A DNA stretch of 64,000 bases from Candidatus Nomurabacteria bacterium (lineage in GTDB: Bacteria; Patescibacteriota; Minisyncoccia; Phycocordibacterales; UBA9973), in the NCBI GenBank assembly GCA_016699085.1, contig CP064958.1, positions 668,619-732,618 on the forward strand. Direction: 5' to 3'. A program made the position numbers and the translations under genes. Under the pieces are notes generated by a model, which was not told the origin of the DNA, searched no databases, and saw only the letters and a list, made by a program, of their open reading frames with translations. Shown piece by piece: positions 5,319 through 62,375 of this stretch (position 1 is the first letter of the stretch; each line of letters starts with the position of its first letter).

Positions 5319-6608
5319 TTATATTCCTTTTAAAATCTTCTCTGCAACCTCGTTTCCGCTTCCTAATGCTCCTTCGACTGTTGCGGTTTCCTCTCCGGTA
5401 TATAATGCCTCACCCGCAAAGAAAACTTTGTTATCTAATGGTTCTACAAGTTTCTCATATGCATCTCCTGTGTCCATAGCGGTGTAGCTATACGCACCGA
5501 GCGCATAAGGATCTTTAGGCCAATTAACTACTTTCCAAGTTTCTATTTGATTTTTCAAAAAATCATTATCGATGTTGAACATATTACTTAGAGCCAGTAA
5601 GCCAAGATCGAGTAATTGATTTTCTAATAGCTCTTTATTCTTGTCTGCATTTGGACCAGCCATCCAGCCAACCATAATATTTTTTTCTACCGGATATTGT
5701 GTCCACCATGCAGTGAAATCATCATTGCAAAGTGCAAAGGATAATTTGGAAAGATCATGATTTGTAACATGCTTCCACCACTGACTTTTGAATTTAATAA
5801 GAAGTTTAATTGCGGGTCCGAAACCAATCTTTGCAGTAAGAGCTAATTTTTCTGAAATATCCGGAATGAATTCAATATTTTTAAGTATTGGTAATGGTAC
5901 GGTCACAATAACCTGGTCTGCTTCAAAGGATTTGTTGTCAGTTTTTACCCTGACTTTATTAGAAGTAAAATCTATCGCTGTCACACAAGCATTAAGTATG
6001 ATTTCAACGCCATTTTGCTTGCACTCTTTCTCGAGGAAGTTAAGAAGTTTACCATAACCTTCTCGTATCCAACCATCGGCATGATAGAGTTTACCGAGTA
6101 CATCTCTACGCAAATAATCAACAGATACTCTCCTGGGATCCGCAGCTTCATAGCCTTCAACCATCTTAAGAATCGAATTTCGCAGGTTTGCGTACTCTTC
6201 TGTATCGAAATACGTCTCAAGAAACTCTGCGATTGAGATATCATTTTGTACTCTCTCAAGAGTGTCTTTGAGGATTGGGTTGCTTTGGATAAATAAGGTA
6301 CGAAGAGATAACGGGCCACTTCGTGCATCCCATACTTCACCATCATGTGCTTCGGGTATAAATGTAAGTCCTGCTTCATCGATGAGAGCTTTGGTGACAG
6401 GAGCTATACCATGAACGAATTCTGCTCCGCCTTGCGCAGGGTAACCAAATGCTTCCTCTTCAAGAGGGAAGATTCTTCCACCGATTCGATCTCGTGCTTC
6501 GAGAATAGTTATTTTCTTTCCTGCCTTAGCAAGTTCCCGCGCTGCCATTAAGCCCGCTGCACCAGCCCCGATAATTAAGGCCTCTGTTTGATTTGTTGTA
6601 GTATCCAT
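5319..6608 (-). CDS. FAD-dependent amine oxidase family oxidoreductase
   Basis: N-terminal GAGAAG Rossmann dinucleotide motif, ILEARDRIGGR, flavin amine-oxidase-like length and C-terminal FAD-contact region. Confidence 0.7.
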   Translation of the reverse strand: MDTTTNQTEALIIGAGAAGLMAARELAKAGKKITILEARDRIGGRIFPLEEEAFGYPAQGGAEFVHGIAPVTKALIDEAGLTFIPEAHDGEVWDARSGPLSLRTLFIQSNPILKDTLERVQNDISIAEFLETYFDTEEYANLRNSILKMVEGYEAADPRRVSVDYLRRDVLGKLYHADGWIREGYGKLLNFLEKECKQNGVEIILNACVTAIDFTSNKVRVKTDNKSFEADQVIVTVPLPILKNIEFIPDISEKLALTAKIGFGPAIKLLIKFKSQWWKHVTNHDLSKLSFALCNDDFTAWWTQYPVEKNIMVGWMAGPNADKNKELLENQLLDLGLLALSNMFNIDNDFLKNQIETWKVVNWPKDPYALGAYSYTAMDTGDAYEKLVEPLDNKVFFAGEALYTGEETATVEGALGSGNEVAEKILKGI

Positions 6609-9281: not shown

Positions 9282-9294
9282 GCTTTATAAAATA

Positions 9295-9329
9295 CAGAAA
9301 AATCCCAGCTGTTAGCTGGGATTTTTCTG
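9295..9329 (+). terminator. rho-independent terminator
   Basis: CAGAAAAATCCCAGC-tgtta-GCTGGGATTTTTCTG hairpin with T-run. Confidence 0.75.
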
Positions 9330-9345
9330 TATTTTATGGTATAGT

Positions 9346-10431: not shown

Positions 10432-10486
10432 ATAGCTAGCAATATACCTCGATCAAATCCGCCTCATCAAATGTAATTCCTCTAAT

Positions 10487-10517
10487 AAAAAATCCGACCA
10501 ATTTGGTCGGATTTTTT
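10487..10517. terminator. bidirectional terminator
   Basis: TCCGACC-aattt-GGTCGGA between A-run and T-run, between convergent dnaJ and cysS. Confidence 0.75.
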
Positions 10518-10524
10518 ATTTTGT

Positions 10525-21089: not shown

Positions 21090-21130
21090 TTAATTCAATC
21101 CCGTAATTTTGCAAAATTACGGGATTGAAT
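21090..21130. repeat. 40 bp perfect palindrome containing two inverted copies of motif ATCCCGTAATTTTGCAAAA
   Basis: AATTCAATCCCGTAATTTTGCAAAATTACGGGATTGAATT; same 19-mer recurs at 62014 and 62299. Confidence 0.8.
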
Positions 21131-21172
21131 TTGATATAACATGTCACAATAAATGGTTGTGGATAACTTTAC

Positions 21173-21201
21173 TTGACTAAAGAACTTTAGTTTGCTAAAG
21201 T
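21173..21201 (+). promoter_or_regulatory. putative promoter with internal palindrome ACTAAAGAACTTTAGT
   Basis: TTGACT-17nt-TAAAGT; near-perfect palindrome at 21176-21191 overlapping the spacer. Confidence 0.4.
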
Positions 21202-21207
21202 GGCGCT

Positions 21208-21531
21208 ATGGAATTCAATTGGAATATAAAACCAAATACGCAACTACTTGAAGCCATCGTTTCGCTTGAAAACACTGACGAAGCCAAGCGTTTTCTGCGC
21301 GACCTTATGACTGAAGGCGAAATAGAAGAATTCGGCAAAAGACTCGAAGCTGCACGTCTGCTTTCAAATAATGTTCAATACAACACAATCATAAAACAAA
21401 CAGGGCTTTCTTCAACGACAATTGCTCGTATCGCTAAATGGCTTCGAGGCTCACTCGGGGGATACAATCTCATACTTACTCGTATTGCTCATCATCATAA
21501 TTCTATCCAACCAAGGAGAGGATTGTCTTAA
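21208..21531 (+). CDS. TrpR-like YerC/YecD family protein
   Basis: 107 aa; ...AARLLSNNVQYNTIIKQTGLSSTTIARIAKWLRGSLGGY matches YerC/YecD Trp-repressor-like fold signature. Confidence 0.7.
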   Translation: MEFNWNIKPNTQLLEAIVSLENTDEAKRFLRDLMTEGEIEEFGKRLEAARLLSNNVQYNTIIKQTGLSSTTIARIAKWLRGSLGGYNLILTRIAHHHNSIQPRRGLS

Positions 21532-48185: not shown

Positions 48186-48252
48186 TGGTGCGTGTGGAAG
48201 GAATCGAACCTTCGACCTCCCGCCAAAGGCGGGCAAGCTGTCTTATAACTGG
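48186..48252 (-). pseudogene. truncated tRNA-Ile 3'-half copy with 19 nt hairpin insertion
   Basis: ...TTATAAGACAG[CTTGCCCGCCTTTGGCGGG]AGGTCGAAGGTTCGATTCCTTCCACACGCACCA: 3' 36 nt identical to neighbouring tRNA-Ile; no 5' acceptor strand. Confidence 0.6.
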
Positions 48253-48260
48253 AAGTGAAT

Positions 48261-48395
48261 TTTCAAATCAATAAAAGTTACCGCCCTGCGTGCGTGTGGA
48301 AGGAATCGAACCTTCGACCTCTGTCTTATCAGGACAGCGTTCTACCACTGAACTACACACGCACGCAAGAAACTAATACTTTTATTGATTTGAAA
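48261..48395. repeat. 18 bp perfect inverted repeats bracketing tRNA-Ile
   Basis: TTTCAAATCAATAAAAGT at 48261-48278 and its reverse complement at 48378-48395. Confidence 0.85.
48291..48362 (-). tRNA. tRNA-Ile (anticodon GAT)
   Basis: manual cloverleaf: acceptor GCGTGTG/CACACGC, D-arm GTTC-AGTGGTA-GAAC, anticodon arm CTGTC-CTGATAA-GACAG, T-arm GAAGG-TTCGATT-CCTTC, discriminator A. Confidence 0.88.
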
Positions 48396-48576: not shown

Positions 48577-48933
48577 TTAGTAATCCCGTCGGCCGCGACT
48601 AGCGCCACCACCGTAACCACCACCTTGCCCACCACGACTTCCACCACCGTAACCACCTCCGTTTCCAGAGCGAGCTGGGCGATCTTCCATTGGGCGAGCT
48701 TCATTGACGGTAAGATTTCTTCCGCCAAAGTCTTGGCCATTGAACATTTCAATAGCCTTCGCTGCTTCCTCGTCAGAGGCCATTTCAACGAAGCCAAAGC
48801 CTTTTGATCGGCCTGACATTTTATCCATGATAATCGTTGCTGATTCTACAGTACCTGCTTGCTCAAAATGTGATTTGAGTTCTGCATCACTAGTGCTGTA
48901 TGGTAAGCCACCAACGTACAACTTCTTTGCCAT
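48577..48933 (-). CDS. RRM-type RNA-binding protein with Gly-rich tail
   Basis: KLYVGGLPYSTSDAELKSHF...KGFGFVEM RNP1/RNP2 then GGYGGG/RGG repeats; start at MAKKLYVGG. Confidence 0.85.
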   Translation of the reverse strand: MAKKLYVGGLPYSTSDAELKSHFEQAGTVESATIIMDKMSGRSKGFGFVEMASDEEAAKAIEMFNGQDFGGRNLTVNEARPMEDRPARSGNGGGYGGGSRGGQGGGYGGGASRGRRDY

Positions 48934-59374: not shown

Positions 59375-60241
59375 TTACTGATGTTCACTTTTAATCTTTC
59401 CTCCTAATGTCCTTAGCTCCTTGAGTGCCATTTTAGCTTCGTCTTTATTCGGCGTTTTGCCATGCCAGTGATAATCGCGCTCAAATTCTTTGACGCCTTT
59501 GCCTGGAATTGTCCGCGCTATGATGACTGATGGTTTTTCGAAAACTGCTTTGGCACGATTAACAGCTCCGACTATATCTTCAAAGTTATGACCATCGATT
59601 TCTTGGACATGCCAGTTAAATGCTTCCCATTTTGCAGTCAATGAATCAAGCGGCATAATATTTTCAGTGTACCCATCAATCTGAATATTGTTTCGATCCA
59701 CAAAGACGATGAGATTCCTAAGCTTTTCTTTACCTGCAAGCATGATAGCTTCCCAATTGTTGCCCTCATCGAGTTCCCCATCACCCGTCAGACAATACAC
59801 GTACTGATCAGCACTGTTGCCATGATCCATGCGGAGTCCCAATGCCATGCCCGTAGCCTGGGAGAGTCCTGAGCCGAGCGGACCCGAACTGTTTTCAAGC
59901 ATTGGTAAATATTCACGATGTGGATGCCCTTGTAGTCGAGTCCCAAATTTGCGAAGCGTTGCAAGTTCAGATACAGGAAAGTACCCTGCGTGTGCCATCG
60001 TTGCATAGAGCACCGGGCAGATGTGGCCATTGGATAGGACGACCCGATCACGCTCTTCCCAATCTGGTTTTTTTGGATTATGTTTCAGTATTTCAAAATA
60101 AAGTGCTGTAAAGACATCTGTCATTCCGAGTGGTCCCGCAGTATGACCTGAACCAGCTTCGAGTAACATCGCAATAATACTTTCACGGATATTGTTAGCG
60201 GTGATGGCGAGTTCTTCTTTTTTTGTATCAGATAAAAACAT
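59375..60241 (-). CDS. transketolase, N-terminal (TPP-binding) subunit
   Basis: GSGHTAGPLG, LSNGH, GDGELDEGNNWEA TPP-binding motifs of split transketolase A subunit. Confidence 0.9.
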   Translation of the reverse strand: MFLSDTKKEELAITANNIRESIIAMLLEAGSGHTAGPLGMTDVFTALYFEILKHNPKKPDWEERDRVVLSNGHICPVLYATMAHAGYFPVSELATLRKFGTRLQGHPHREYLPMLENSSGPLGSGLSQATGMALGLRMDHGNSADQYVYCLTGDGELDEGNNWEAIMLAGKEKLRNLIVFVDRNNIQIDGYTENIMPLDSLTAKWEAFNWHVQEIDGHNFEDIVGAVNRAKAVFEKPSVIIARTIPGKGVKEFERDYHWHGKTPNKDEAKMALKELRTLGGKIKSEHQ

Positions 60242-60256
60242 ACAAAAAGTATACCA

Positions 60257-61987
60257 CTATTTATGTCTGTGCAGAATTCGCGCAATTTTAAGGTCGTTGT
60301 ATGAATACTTACCACCAAATTTTTCATACACAGGGGTTAGTTTATCTGTATCTAATCCTTCAAATGCCTTATGAATCTCTGGCATATACTGTATGAGTGT
60401 GGGGGTTAGTAGTCTTGAAAAATCAGAAGATGCGATTAAGCCTTTTGTAATTAACTTTTCAATATGATCAAAAATAGTTTGCTGGGTTAACCCACGTGCT
60501 TTGGCGATTTCTGATATTGTTTTTTCTTGCTGCCAAAGTGTTAAAGTTTCTAAAAGTGTATCTTGCTTTTTGTTTTTGATTTTTGTAACAGTTTTCGTCT
60601 CAAGTGTCCCCCCTGAAGCTTTGATAAAGTTTGTATGCAATACAGCGATTTTCTCTTGCGACATTTGCTCAAATGCTTCACTTGCAGCTTCAGCTTTTTC
60701 ACGAAATTCTCTATCTTTTATAAGAATGTCCGGATGCACCTTGAGTGCATGTTCATTGATACCGAGCAAGTAGAGGCCTGACAGATTCCTAAGCCGTGAC
60801 AGTGCGACATAGCCTTGACCGAACTCAAACACTTGCGACAGATCAATAATAGCTGCATCGAGACTCATGCCTTGACTCTTGTGCACCGTCATAGCCCATG
60901 CGAGACGTAGTGGAATTTGCGTAATATTTGCTTTTATTTTTCCATTTTCTTCGACTGCCCATTCCATAGGCTCTGCAGTGATTTGTTTTCCATTTCTCAC
61001 TTTTATGATCGGGTACCTTGTTCCTGGTTGAAATGCCTCTACGACCCCTAGCGTACCATTGACGAAACCTTCTTGAGGATTGTTCTTAGTAAACATAACA
61101 GTTGCACCAATCTTGAGTTCTAATACTTCCGGTGACAGACAACCCTTTTTTAGTATACTCACCAATATATCGCTACCATGTGATGTCATCACATATCGTT
61201 CACTTTTTGCATCAAGCTTTGCGAGAGCTTCATTGTTCATTATGTCTACTTGCGCATTATGCGAATAAAGCTTCGTCGTATGTTCAGGCACACTATCACT
61301 GGTTACCCGGCGAGACATAATATGGTCATAGTGTACTTCGGATACGCTGTCGGTTCGTATCGCATTCAAAAGTTCCAAAAATGCCATATCGTCTTGGCGA
61401 TGCTGCTCGTCCAGATAGCACACTATGGGCTTTGCATTTCGCCACGCATCCGATACATAGGCGAATCCGATCTGTTCCATCTCATCATTTTCATAGGTAC
61501 CGTCAGCGAGGAGCATTTGCTGCTTGCGTCTATCAATTTTTTGTGGAGCTGTTATAGGCGGCAACTGAAAAAAATCACCGACAAAGATAACCTGTATACC
61601 TCCAAACGGCATATCGTTTCGCTTGATAGTTCGGCAAACTGCATCAATCATTGAAACCATGTTCGCATGAAGCATCGATACTTCATCAATGATAAGGACA
61701 TTTGTTTTGTTTATTCTCTTAGTGATATATTCGCTACTTGAGATTTTATCGAGATCATAGTCACTCAGATAGGTTCGAATGCCAATACCACTCCAGGAGT
61801 GTATTGTCATACCATTGATATGCGTTGCAGCAATACCGGTCGAAGCAGTGATTGCAGGCTCAATCCCATGCTCACGTAAATACCGTATGTATGCCCTGGT
61901 CGTATGTGTCTTGCCAGAGCCAGGTTCCCCGGTCAAAAATACATTGGCTCCGGTTTTTAAAATAGTTAACGCTTGCTCTTGAGTCAT
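60257..61987 (-). CDS. Pif1/RecD-like SF1 helicase with C-terminal HTH domain
   Basis: Walker A GEPGSGKTH, Walker B IIDEVSM, Pif1-like motifs through VHKSQGM; ~120 aa C-terminal wHTH-like extension. Confidence 0.8.
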   Translation of the reverse strand: MTQEQALTILKTGANVFLTGEPGSGKTHTTRAYIRYLREHGIEPAITASTGIAATHINGMTIHSWSGIGIRTYLSDYDLDKISSSEYITKRINKTNVLIIDEVSMLHANMVSMIDAVCRTIKRNDMPFGGIQVIFVGDFFQLPPITAPQKIDRRKQQMLLADGTYENDEMEQIGFAYVSDAWRNAKPIVCYLDEQHRQDDMAFLELLNAIRTDSVSEVHYDHIMSRRVTSDSVPEHTTKLYSHNAQVDIMNNEALAKLDAKSERYVMTSHGSDILVSILKKGCLSPEVLELKIGATVMFTKNNPQEGFVNGTLGVVEAFQPGTRYPIIKVRNGKQITAEPMEWAVEENGKIKANITQIPLRLAWAMTVHKSQGMSLDAAIIDLSQVFEFGQGYVALSRLRNLSGLYLLGINEHALKVHPDILIKDREFREKAEAASEAFEQMSQEKIAVLHTNFIKASGGTLETKTVTKIKNKKQDTLLETLTLWQQEKTISEIAKARGLTQQTIFDHIEKLITKGLIASSDFSRLLTPTLIQYMPEIHKAFEGLDTDKLTPVYEKFGGKYSYNDLKIARILHRHK

Positions 61988-62011: not shown

Positions 62012-62287
62012 TTATCCCGTAATTTTGCAAAACTTCAGTATAGCAATTCCCTTGGTTGTTAATCCATGCCGAATTGATCTGCCGTCTGAACGTTTCATTA
62101 TAAGTCCTGTTTGCGCCAACTTGCGAATATGATCAGATATAGTATTAAAATTTACATTAAGTGACTTTGCAATTTCATCAACTGATAGTTCTGGAGTTTT
62201 GGCAAGTAAAAACAGAATTTCAATACGTCGATGATTTGCAAATCCTTTGAATGTACGTTCAAGTTTATAATAATCTTTTTGTTGCAT
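62012..62287 (-). CDS. ArsR/SmtB family transcriptional regulator
   Basis: 91 aa; HRRIEILFLLAK...LSVDEIAKSLNVNFNTISDHIRKL wHTH. Confidence 0.8.
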   Translation of the reverse strand: MQQKDYYKLERTFKGFANHRRIEILFLLAKTPELSVDEIAKSLNVNFNTISDHIRKLAQTGLIMKRSDGRSIRHGLTTKGIAILKFCKITG

Positions 62288-62317
62288 ATATAGTATCTTA
62301 TACCAACATTTTGCAAA
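62014..62317. repeat. 19 bp perfect inverted repeats bracketing the ArsR gene
   Basis: ATCCCGTAATTTTGCAAAA at 62014-62032 (encodes the ArsR C-terminus FCKITG*) and its reverse complement at 62299-62317 (12-30 nt upstream of the ArsR start). Confidence 0.85.
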
Positions 62318-62375
62318 ATTACGGGATAAGGAATGCTTTAAAATTTAAATTTACAATTTCCAAAAGAAATAAACA

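Follow-up and report, generated by a model that had tools for sequence, protein, structure and literature searches.

The arsR-like gene and its palindromic sites

The DNA considered here is a 64,000-nucleotide (nt) stretch of a Candidatus Nomurabacteria genome (contig CP064958.1, positions 668,619 to 732,618), referred to below as the window. On its minus strand, at 62012–62287, the window carries a gene for a minimal ArsR/SmtB-type winged-helix protein of 91 amino acids (aa), identified from the list of open reading frames (ORFs), profile matches, an AlphaFold2 model and Foldseek. The gene is bracketed by two copies of a palindromic sequence, one ahead of the start codon (site B) and one over the last codons and the stop (site A). 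The two palindromes are probably the cognate operator pair of an ArsR/SmtB-type repressor that lacks a sensor site, and the 3′ copy would act on transcription as it exits the gene.

The repeat is most easily seen as the 19-mer ATCCCGTAATTTTGCAAAA, which has four exact occurrences in the window: 62014–62032 (+), 62309–62327 (−), 21098–21116 (+) and 21107–21125 (−). No additional matches are found in the window at up to three mismatches. Dinucleotide-preserving shuffles hold a mean of 0.02 matches, and none of 100 shuffles reaches four. An earlier note on this DNA had placed the first arm at 62014–62032, over the last codons and stop of the arsR-like gene, and an exact match lies there. Its coordinate for the second arm (62299–62317) was 10 nt too low. 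Counted from the A of the ATG (62287), the arm lies 22–40 nt upstream, whereas the note gave 12–30 nt. The exact inverted repeat around the gene reaches 21 nt (TTATCCCGTAATTTTGCAAAA, 62012–62032 and 62309–62329) and extends imperfectly to 31 nt with 87% complementarity. The 40-bp palindrome that had been reported near 21090 is also present. It consists of a perfect 28-bp palindrome at 21098–21125, from which perfect complementarity continues to 21092–21131. However, its two copies of the 19-mer are not back-to-back as the note had it, as they overlap by 10 bp, the self-complementary core TTTTGCAAAA.

When all window positions are scored against the 28-bp palindrome, site A (62014–62041) and site B (62300–62327) each match at 24 of the 28 positions, and the next-best position has 10 mismatches. 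As each gene-flanking copy matches the whole palindrome in this way, the window contains three full sites, one perfect and two degenerate, and not half-sites. The predicted upstream operator, site B, reads ATCCCGTAATTTTGCAAAATGTTGGTAT on the gene strand and lies 13–40 nt before the ATG, with its exact 19-mer arm at 62309–62327. The predicted 3′ operator, site A, reads ATACTGAAGTTTTGCAAAATTACGGGAT on the gene strand, has its exact arm at 62014–62032, and is positioned 27–54 nt upstream of the start of a PIF1-like helicase gene. The third site is the perfect palindrome ATCCCGTAATTTTGCAAAATTACGGGAT at 21098–21125. It begins 28 nt past the stop of an AspRS/AsnRS-type gene, and 96 nt separate its centre from the start of the yerC/yecD-like gene that follows. 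The operator form in this genome can be written as ATCCCGTAA-TTTTGCAAAA-TTACGGGAT, a two-fold symmetric sequence of approximately 28–30 bp. A further 17 kb or so of this genome, on the two sides of the window, contain no more copies. The total is three sites in approximately 81 kb, and the motif is not a ubiquitous repeat. A scan of reference genome contigs with the 16-mer CCGTAATTTTGCAAAA, too short a query, returned only single chance matches in unrelated phyla, none of them palindromic.

The 91-aa protein matches Pfam HTH_5 (4e-9) and NCBIfam NF033788 (56.4 bits against a cutoff of 55). Its AlphaFold2 model has a predicted local distance difference test score (pLDDT) of 92 and the order a1-a2-a3-aR-b1-b2-a5, where aR is the recognition helix. 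The secondary structure predicted by the model is H3–16, H19–30, H36–43, H47–59, E63–67, E72–76 and H78–90. The top Foldseek matches are CadC, CzrA and SmtB, with template modelling (TM) scores over approximately 90 residues of 0.86–0.88 to CzrA and 0.86 to SmtB. Among solved structures, hidden Markov model (HMM) matches are obtained to HlyU (3jth, the best, E = 3.5e-11), CadC and CzrA. Fold, profile and operator form place the protein within the ArsR/SmtB family. The invariant residues are E10, R11, G15, H19, R20, R21, L28, E33, L43, H53, G61, K65, R66, H74 and F86.

The canonical metal-ligand sets of the family (Cys of a3/a3N; Asp/His/His/Glu of a5) were not found in this protein. Its a3 segment is VDEIAKSL and its a5 segment is TKGIAILKFCKIT. 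The sole cysteine is C87, at a position where most homologues have leucine. As the test for metal-sensor ligands failed, the protein resembles the non-metal members of the family, such as HlyU, PagR and NolR. Taken as a 30-mer (62012–62041), site A coincides exactly with the last nine codons (ILKFCKITG) and the TAA stop of the ORF, and it therefore encodes most of helix a5 (residues 78–90). It had been remarked in the earlier note that a motif partly encoding the C-terminus is unusual. This is correct, and it has become the most interesting part of the finding.

A putative extended −10-like element, TGGTATAAG, is read by us at 62297–62305 on the minus strand, where it overlaps the inner arm of site B. 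The element ends 9 nt before the ATG and would give a near-leaderless arsR-like mRNA. A consensus scan that requires both −35 and −10 hexamers calls no minus-strand promoter in the site B region. The predicted role of site B, that of an autoregulatory operator that would work by promoter occlusion, is well supported by its position and by the covariation described below.

Conservation and covariation in homologous loci

A family-alignment scan of metagenome contigs yielded 80 loci. After deduplication, and with the addition of the window and the relatives L125, L127 and L129, the set comprises 77 non-redundant loci. The homologues have 55–78% protein identity, and those with a source name are all from Patescibacteria. 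Genes in the metagenome loci were called by a crude ORF caller of our own. The family itself is larger, as a profile search returns 269 clusters at the 50% identity level (E ≤ 1e-10).

In each of the first relatives examined (L125, L127 and L129), one palindrome occurs twice, ahead of the gene and across its final codons. The palindrome of L129 differs in sequence (CATTCCAACATTCTTGAGAATGTTGGAATG), yet it is present at both positions. The same palindrome at both ends of the gene is found in 77/77 loci. An upstream site was counted as matching if it lay no more than 260 nt upstream of the start and was identical to the 3′ site of its own locus at 22 or more of 30 positions. This threshold is passed in 76 of the 77 loci, and the remaining one (L168) has an upstream palindrome of the same class that falls below it. 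Two more relatives from outside the set, L211 and L212, have the same layout.

The placement of both copies is narrow. The upstream palindrome of approximately 30 bp lies 20–90 nt before the ATG in 73 of 75 scored loci, and the other two have it at 135 and 201 nt. In 69/77 loci the 3′ copy covers exactly the last nine codons and the stop, so that its centre falls 16 nt before the stop codon ends. In five others (L158, L166, L185, L196 and L208) the C-terminal codons no longer form a site, and a full copy is found 16–42 nt past the stop. A premature stop in L200 puts the site just downstream. Upstream copies are mostly perfect palindromes (13/13 arm pairs). Coding copies have 8–13 pairs and typically 9–11, as double constraint on a copy that also encodes protein would lead one to expect. 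The general form of the palindrome is TATTC-N4-ATTC-N4-GAAT-N4-GAATA, of which the window clade has a diverged version, and its 13-4-13 layout is the long inverted repeat typical of the family.

Two other origins or roles of the upstream copy were considered and set aside. A larger duplication is not indicated, as the 30 nt beyond the sites match at background (8.6–10.3 of 30). Service to the 3′ end of the preceding gene was rejected because the upstream site lies at a loose distance from that gene's stop (7–498 nt) and at a tight distance from the arsR-like ATG.

Further copies of the palindrome occur in some relatives. L132 (100–830) contains at least eight copies of the 30-bp palindrome around one arsR-like gene, and L134 (1440–2110) has a similar array. 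The arrays lie on both sides of the gene, with a period of approximately 57–67 bp and CT-rich spacers of similar composition. Such arrays suggest a local amplification of the operator unit, in preference to CRISPR or integron cassettes. A reading of the L132 array as integron attC sites or as CRISPR-like was rejected, since its palindromes are non-identical, its CT-rich spacers are similar, and there are no cassette ORFs. In L212, a third perfect operator copy (TATACCGTAATTTTGCAAAATTACGGTATA, 5467–5496) ends 8 nt before the start of a gene for a MobA-like nucleotidyltransferase, paralleling the third site of the window.

The two copies within a locus resemble each other more closely than copies from different loci do. 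The 3′ site matches the best upstream 30-mer at a mean of 26.3/30 within a locus, compared with 21.2/30 between loci. The core class is concordant within the locus in 25/25 loci with TTTTGCAAAA, 4/4 with TTCTGCAGAA and 3/3 with TTCCGCGGAA. A further 43 loci are paired within the core class TTCT[C/T][A/G]AGAA, and the remaining two are one or two bases off that class.

This agreement extends to the codons of the 3′ copy. The phenylalanine codon is TTC in 44/44 loci with a TTC upstream core and TTT in 23/23 with a TTT core. The stop codon is TGA in six of nine loci in which the outer bases of the upstream site are C..G, as against one of 50 with T..A (Fisher p = 1.2e-5). Symmetric positions inside the coding copy (13/18, 10/21 and 8/23) co-vary, and positions 13 and 18 pair perfectly; AAA is found with ATA, and AAG with ACA. 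As judged from these sequence patterns, selection acts on the DNA of the coding copy, beyond the peptide alone.

The recognition helix of the protein follows the same classes. Helices of the form GYxN..SDH go with TTTTGCAAAA flanked by CTAGT arms (17/17), those of the form NFxT..SEH with TTCTYRAGAA or TTCTGCAGAA (39/39), and NFRT..SDH with TTCCGCGGAA. The helix of the window clade, NF[N/C]T[I/G]SDHIRK..Q, accompanies TTTTGCAAAA flanked by ACGG-type arms. At the C-terminus, the residues F-L-R, F-C-K and F-C-R accompany the cores TTCTTGAGAA, TTTTGCAAAA and TTCTGCAGAA, respectively. Switches between classes are discrete, and they affect helix, upstream site and 3′ site together. Two loci, L182 (7109–7444) and L207 (1474–1749), carry a second ArsR-like paralogue 1–2 kb from the first, and each paralogue is bracketed by its own palindrome variant (e.g., CTAGTTTTTTGCAAAAAACTAG and CTAACGTTTTGCAAAATGATAG). 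This suggests that non-cross-reacting specificities coexist within one genome.

Proposed action of the two sites and alternative readings

The proposed mechanism begins at site B, where a dimer of the ArsR-like protein would block RNA polymerase at its own promoter and so bring about negative autoregulation. At site A, the protein would occlude a promoter for the pif1-like and transketolase genes, or act as a roadblock to read-through into them. Occupancy of site A would thus tie the downstream genes to the regulator and may also reinforce site B cooperatively. The palindrome at 21098 would be a third site of the same small regulon. We infer both that the 91-aa protein binds these sites and that it represses, rather than activates. 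The earlier note had proposed an autoregulatory operator with an additional regulon site near 21090, and the comparative evidence favours both; the half-site contained in that proposal has given way to complete pseudo-palindromes.

Three mechanisms would fit the 3′ copy: an operator for the promoter of the next gene, a protein roadblock, and an auxiliary operator that loops with site B. Evidence on the first comes from −10-like hexamers, taken as matches of at least 5/6 to TATAAT that begin 10–60 nt downstream of the site centre. Such hexamers follow 81% of upstream sites, 47% of 3′ sites with a codirectional downstream gene, 25% of random positions, and 20% of 3′ sites whose downstream gene was called convergent, a noisy class (L171 is among those mislabelled) that can be relied on only in L129 and L211, where gene calls come from a database. 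Codirectional downstream genes are found in 54/70 loci, and they often start within 2–60 nt. Directly past the 3′ operator of L211 (1514–1640) the sequence resembles a convergent tRNA gene; the apparent T-arm is of the GGTTCGAATC type and on the opposite strand. This 3′ site, too, would have no codirectional protein-coding gene next to it.

The genes that surround the module are for the most part not shared. Among 140 neighbour proteins, 97 are singletons, and rsmI is the sole frequent partner (11/78 loci). A PIF1-like helicase gene is near the module in 3/78 loci. The rpiB-rpe-tkt cluster recurs in the window clade, where the order is rpe-module-pif1-tktN in the window, rpe-module-tktN in L131 and rpiB-module-rpe in L125. 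A pentose-phosphate gene or operon thus follows the 3′ site in all three. The L129 module adjoins pgi and the genes for 6-phosphogluconate dehydrogenase (6PGD) and glucose-6-phosphate dehydrogenase (G6PD). From the gene context in the window clade and L129, the module may be a lineage-specific regulator of the pentose-phosphate pathway, and in the window lineage it is a candidate regulator of the rpiB-rpe-tkt cluster. A coherent regulon was sought among the genes next to extra sites and none was found, as these genes are heterogeneous: they encode a MobA-like nucleotidyltransferase, an NYN domain protein, a zinc ribbon protein, an MGMT-like DNA-binding domain and several unknowns.

These observations point in two directions. 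The enrichment of −10-like elements and the pentose-phosphate context of the window clade argue that the 3′ copy also controls downstream genes. That the 3′ copy is retained whatever the neighbour, and is re-created past the stop codon, speaks for a role in the module itself.

Several points weigh against an operator pair of this kind. Where the next gene is called convergent, the 3′ site is no worse preserved (26.4 versus 26.3 of 30). Since the site is retained despite convergent genes and unconserved neighbours, a pure operator for the downstream gene is not the general reason for it. In the window, no convincing sigma-70 promoter is called between site A and the helicase start. The predicted −35 hexamer of yerC lies roughly 50 bp downstream of the 21098 site, with no overlap between the two. 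The centre of many upstream sites is near −41 of the inferred transcription start, a position that activators also use. The covariation counts treat related loci as independent, and they are inflated by kinship. Lastly, perfect complementarity continues for at least 3 bp past the 30-mer on each side in 30/59 upstream sites, with locus-specific sequence, where about one such site is expected. A plain protein operator leaves this extended upstream palindromy unexplained. The intergenic copies may have a secondary role as a hairpin or cruciform.

A tentative extension of the operator reading is that the module is a self-contained cassette. The binding site would be hard-wired into the codons of the dimerisation helix, and the bracketing pair would insulate or loop the gene and could capture a gene placed downstream. 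An autonomous cassette able to capture any downstream gene would explain why the module occurs in almost unrelated neighbourhoods. If this is the case, a change of specificity needs matching changes at the recognition helix, the promoter operator and the a5 codons at once.

The main rival, possible if doubtful, is that the 3′ copy serves chiefly the regulator itself, through looping. Dimers at sites B and A would contact each other, loop out the gene between them (286 bp) and sharpen autorepression, in the manner of the auxiliary operators lac O2 and gal OI, and any downstream effect would be secondary. The retention of the 3′ site regardless of the identity or orientation of the downstream gene is consistent with this, as is its re-creation past the stop codon after loss from the codons. 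The centre-to-centre spacing is mostly 279–350 bp, and the 286 bp of the window equal approximately 27.2 helical turns. A weak periodicity of 10–10.75 bp is seen in 69 distances (Rayleigh R ~0.23, p ~0.025, uncorrected for the periods tested or for relatedness). However, this periodicity is marginal and the range of spacings follows largely from gene length. Looping would also require this 91-aa dimer to form a dimer of dimers, and ArsR/SmtB proteins are not known to form loops.

An action at the level of RNA is very unlikely. In this case, hairpins would end transcripts or make them more stable, or pairing between the 5′ and 3′ copies would close the mRNA, and the likeness to an operator would be incidental. 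The palindrome at 21098, 28 nt past a stop codon, would indeed fold as RNA at −22.8 kcal/mol (z −7.25). Half of the upstream sites have palindromy that runs past the 30-mer with variable sequence, and symmetric positions co-vary. Sites A and B, however, fold no better than shuffles (z +0.45 and −0.78), and no T-run terminators are called at either window locus. Rfam gives nothing above threshold at either locus; the matches are weak and involve for the most part unrelated families of microRNAs and small RNAs. A hairpin acting as RNA has no need to agree with another copy 300 bp distant or with a recognition-helix class. Furthermore, the −10-like elements downstream of the upstream sites place those sites probably outside the arsR mRNA.

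A mobile element, the second proposal of the earlier note, is likewise very unlikely. The copies would be the terminal inverted repeats of a miniature element that carries the regulator, and the palindrome at 21098 would be a solo or empty site. The site-gene-site module is precisely bounded, with similarity that stops at approximately 30–36 bp, and it is found in almost unrelated gene neighbourhoods. Within the window clade it occupies differing positions in the rpiB-rpe-tkt cluster, and it has proliferated locally in L132 (at least eight copies) and L134. By our own reading of the sequence, deletion of 62033–62308 would rebuild a palindrome of the 21098 type with TTTTGCAAAA duplicated. Against this, the flanks (GTAAGTA and GGAATGC) contain no target-site duplication, there is no transposase or recombinase in or beside the unit, and only three copies are present in approximately 81 kb. 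The orientation of the copies is not conserved, a direct match being the better one in 32 loci and an inverted match in 19, with 26 ties. Presence/absence polymorphism, for which the note had suggested a comparison of related genomes, is not seen, as four other assemblies of this species have an identical locus. The inner boundary of such an element would cut the gene nine codons before its end, and the covariation between site and recognition helix is unpredicted unless the winged helix-turn-helix (wHTH) protein is itself the recombination factor.

An inversion switch, also raised in the note, in which a recombinase acting at the repeats as crossover sites flips the 276-bp segment and turns the regulator on or off, draws on the perfect 21-nt inverted repeat that brackets the gene in the window genome but is of almost negligible probability, given that the neighbours (rpe, rpiB, the pif1-like helicase and tkt) include no invertase or integrase gene, that five assemblies of the species have one orientation and identical sequence, that the best repeat in close relatives is direct (L211) or the sites are perfect palindromes without polarity, and that a flip would detach the final nine codons from the body of the gene. 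The 28-mer was also considered as a dif/Xer-like 11-6-11 site, and this reading was rejected. The inner arms of dif are ATAA-N6-TTAT, which those of the 28-mer do not resemble, and the sites co-vary with the wHTH recognition helix.

Known systems and neighbouring genes

The closest parallels to the proposed operator pair are the autorepressors SmtB, CzrA and CadC, which act at 12-2-12 operators. The 91-aa protein shares their fold over the whole length, including a5, and their small homodimer-type architecture. As in those systems, a long AT-rich imperfect inverted repeat overlaps the regulator's own promoter. The cad and czr operators contain TGAA/TTCA-type arms, which are reminiscent of the GAAT/ATTC arms of most homologues. 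The protein differs in having neither the a3N cysteine pair nor the a5 Asp/His/Glu set. A further difference is that a second predicted operator is fixed at the coding 3′ end of the regulator itself in all loci examined. Autoregulation through a long inverted repeat is ordinary for the ArsR/SmtB family.

HlyU, PagR, NolR and BigR are similar in being minimal wHTH proteins without metal sites that have palindromic sites near promoters. HlyU is an anti-silencing activator and BigR has a redox-active cysteine pair, neither of which can be inferred for the 91-aa protein. We know of no report of an operator inside the C-terminal codons of any of these four.

Second operator copies within coding sequence, no more than a few hundred base pairs from the promoter operator, are present in the lac (O2 in lacZ) and gal (OI in galE) systems. 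The likeness extends to action only if the 3′ copy works by looping or as a roadblock. In lac and gal, the auxiliary site is near the 5′ end of the regulated structural gene. The ArsR-like 3′ site, in contrast, is in the regulator's own gene, in a fixed codon register at the extreme 3′ end, where it dictates part of the protein sequence. The REPtrons of the REP/RAYT system are also comparable, as a gene is bracketed by short palindromes that its product is thought to recognise and more copies are found elsewhere. They differ from the present case, in which the gene encodes a wHTH regulator without a match to HUH/Y1 transposases, three copies are present in approximately 81 kb, and one copy is inside coding sequence.

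Literature searches returned no description of this protein family, of a second operator in the last nine codons of an ArsR/SmtB regulator's own gene, or of such a layout. They likewise returned none of the conservation of a 3′ operator across a family, or of a three-way co-evolution of helix, operator and a5 codons. The arrangement would be a clean natural case of overlapping code, in which a predicted transcription factor site constrains the synonymous codons, stop choice and amino acids of its own factor. It would also add a widespread family of regulators whose operator code is lineage-specific and easy to read. Regulation has hardly been studied in Patescibacteria (the candidate phyla radiation), most of which cannot be grown in pure culture. 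If the 3′ operator is a roadblock, insulator or loop anchor, it would show how transcription units can be delimited in small, tightly packed, terminator-poor genomes.

In the window, rpe and rpiB lie upstream of the arsR-like gene. The first gene after site A, at 60257–61987 (−), encodes a PIF1-like superfamily 1B (SF1B) helicase with a C-terminal HTH_40 domain (Pfam PIF1 4.5e-33, HTH_40 1.7e-19). It is followed at 59375–60241 (−) by the gene for the N-terminal half of transketolase (tktN). By tblastn, 31 aa of the HTH_40 domain of the helicase (60434–60526, −) share 48% identity (E = 7e-4) with the helix-turn-helix in the ArsR-like protein. PIF1-like helicase genes are also found near the module in L173, L179 and L199.

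Downstream of the 21098 site is a yerC/yecD-type TrpR-like gene at 21208–21531 (+), assigned by TIGR02531 (64.2 bits against a cutoff of 42.2). Its predicted promoter is TTGACT-17-TAAAGT at 21173–21201, preceded by TG. Only 6 nt separate the end of this promoter (21173–21208, +) from the ATG, and the mRNA would accordingly be leaderless or nearly so. Several promoters of arsR-like genes at other loci have the same appearance.

Other repeats are also present in the window. Perfect hairpin palindromes occur at 9287–9337 (24-nt arms, 3-nt loop) and 10484–10520 (18-nt arms, 1-nt loop). Both are A/T-rich with a GC core, unrelated in sequence to the operator, and are probably bidirectional terminators. 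A tRNA gene is located at 48291–48362 (−), and a 32-nt exact repeat of its 3′ part lies 102 nt away at 48188–48219. The repeat may represent a further tRNA, or a fragment, missed by Rfam. Near the tRNA gene, at 48605–48667, is a CCACCACC tandem repeat with a 12-nt period, which is presumably glycine-rich coding sequence on the opposite strand.

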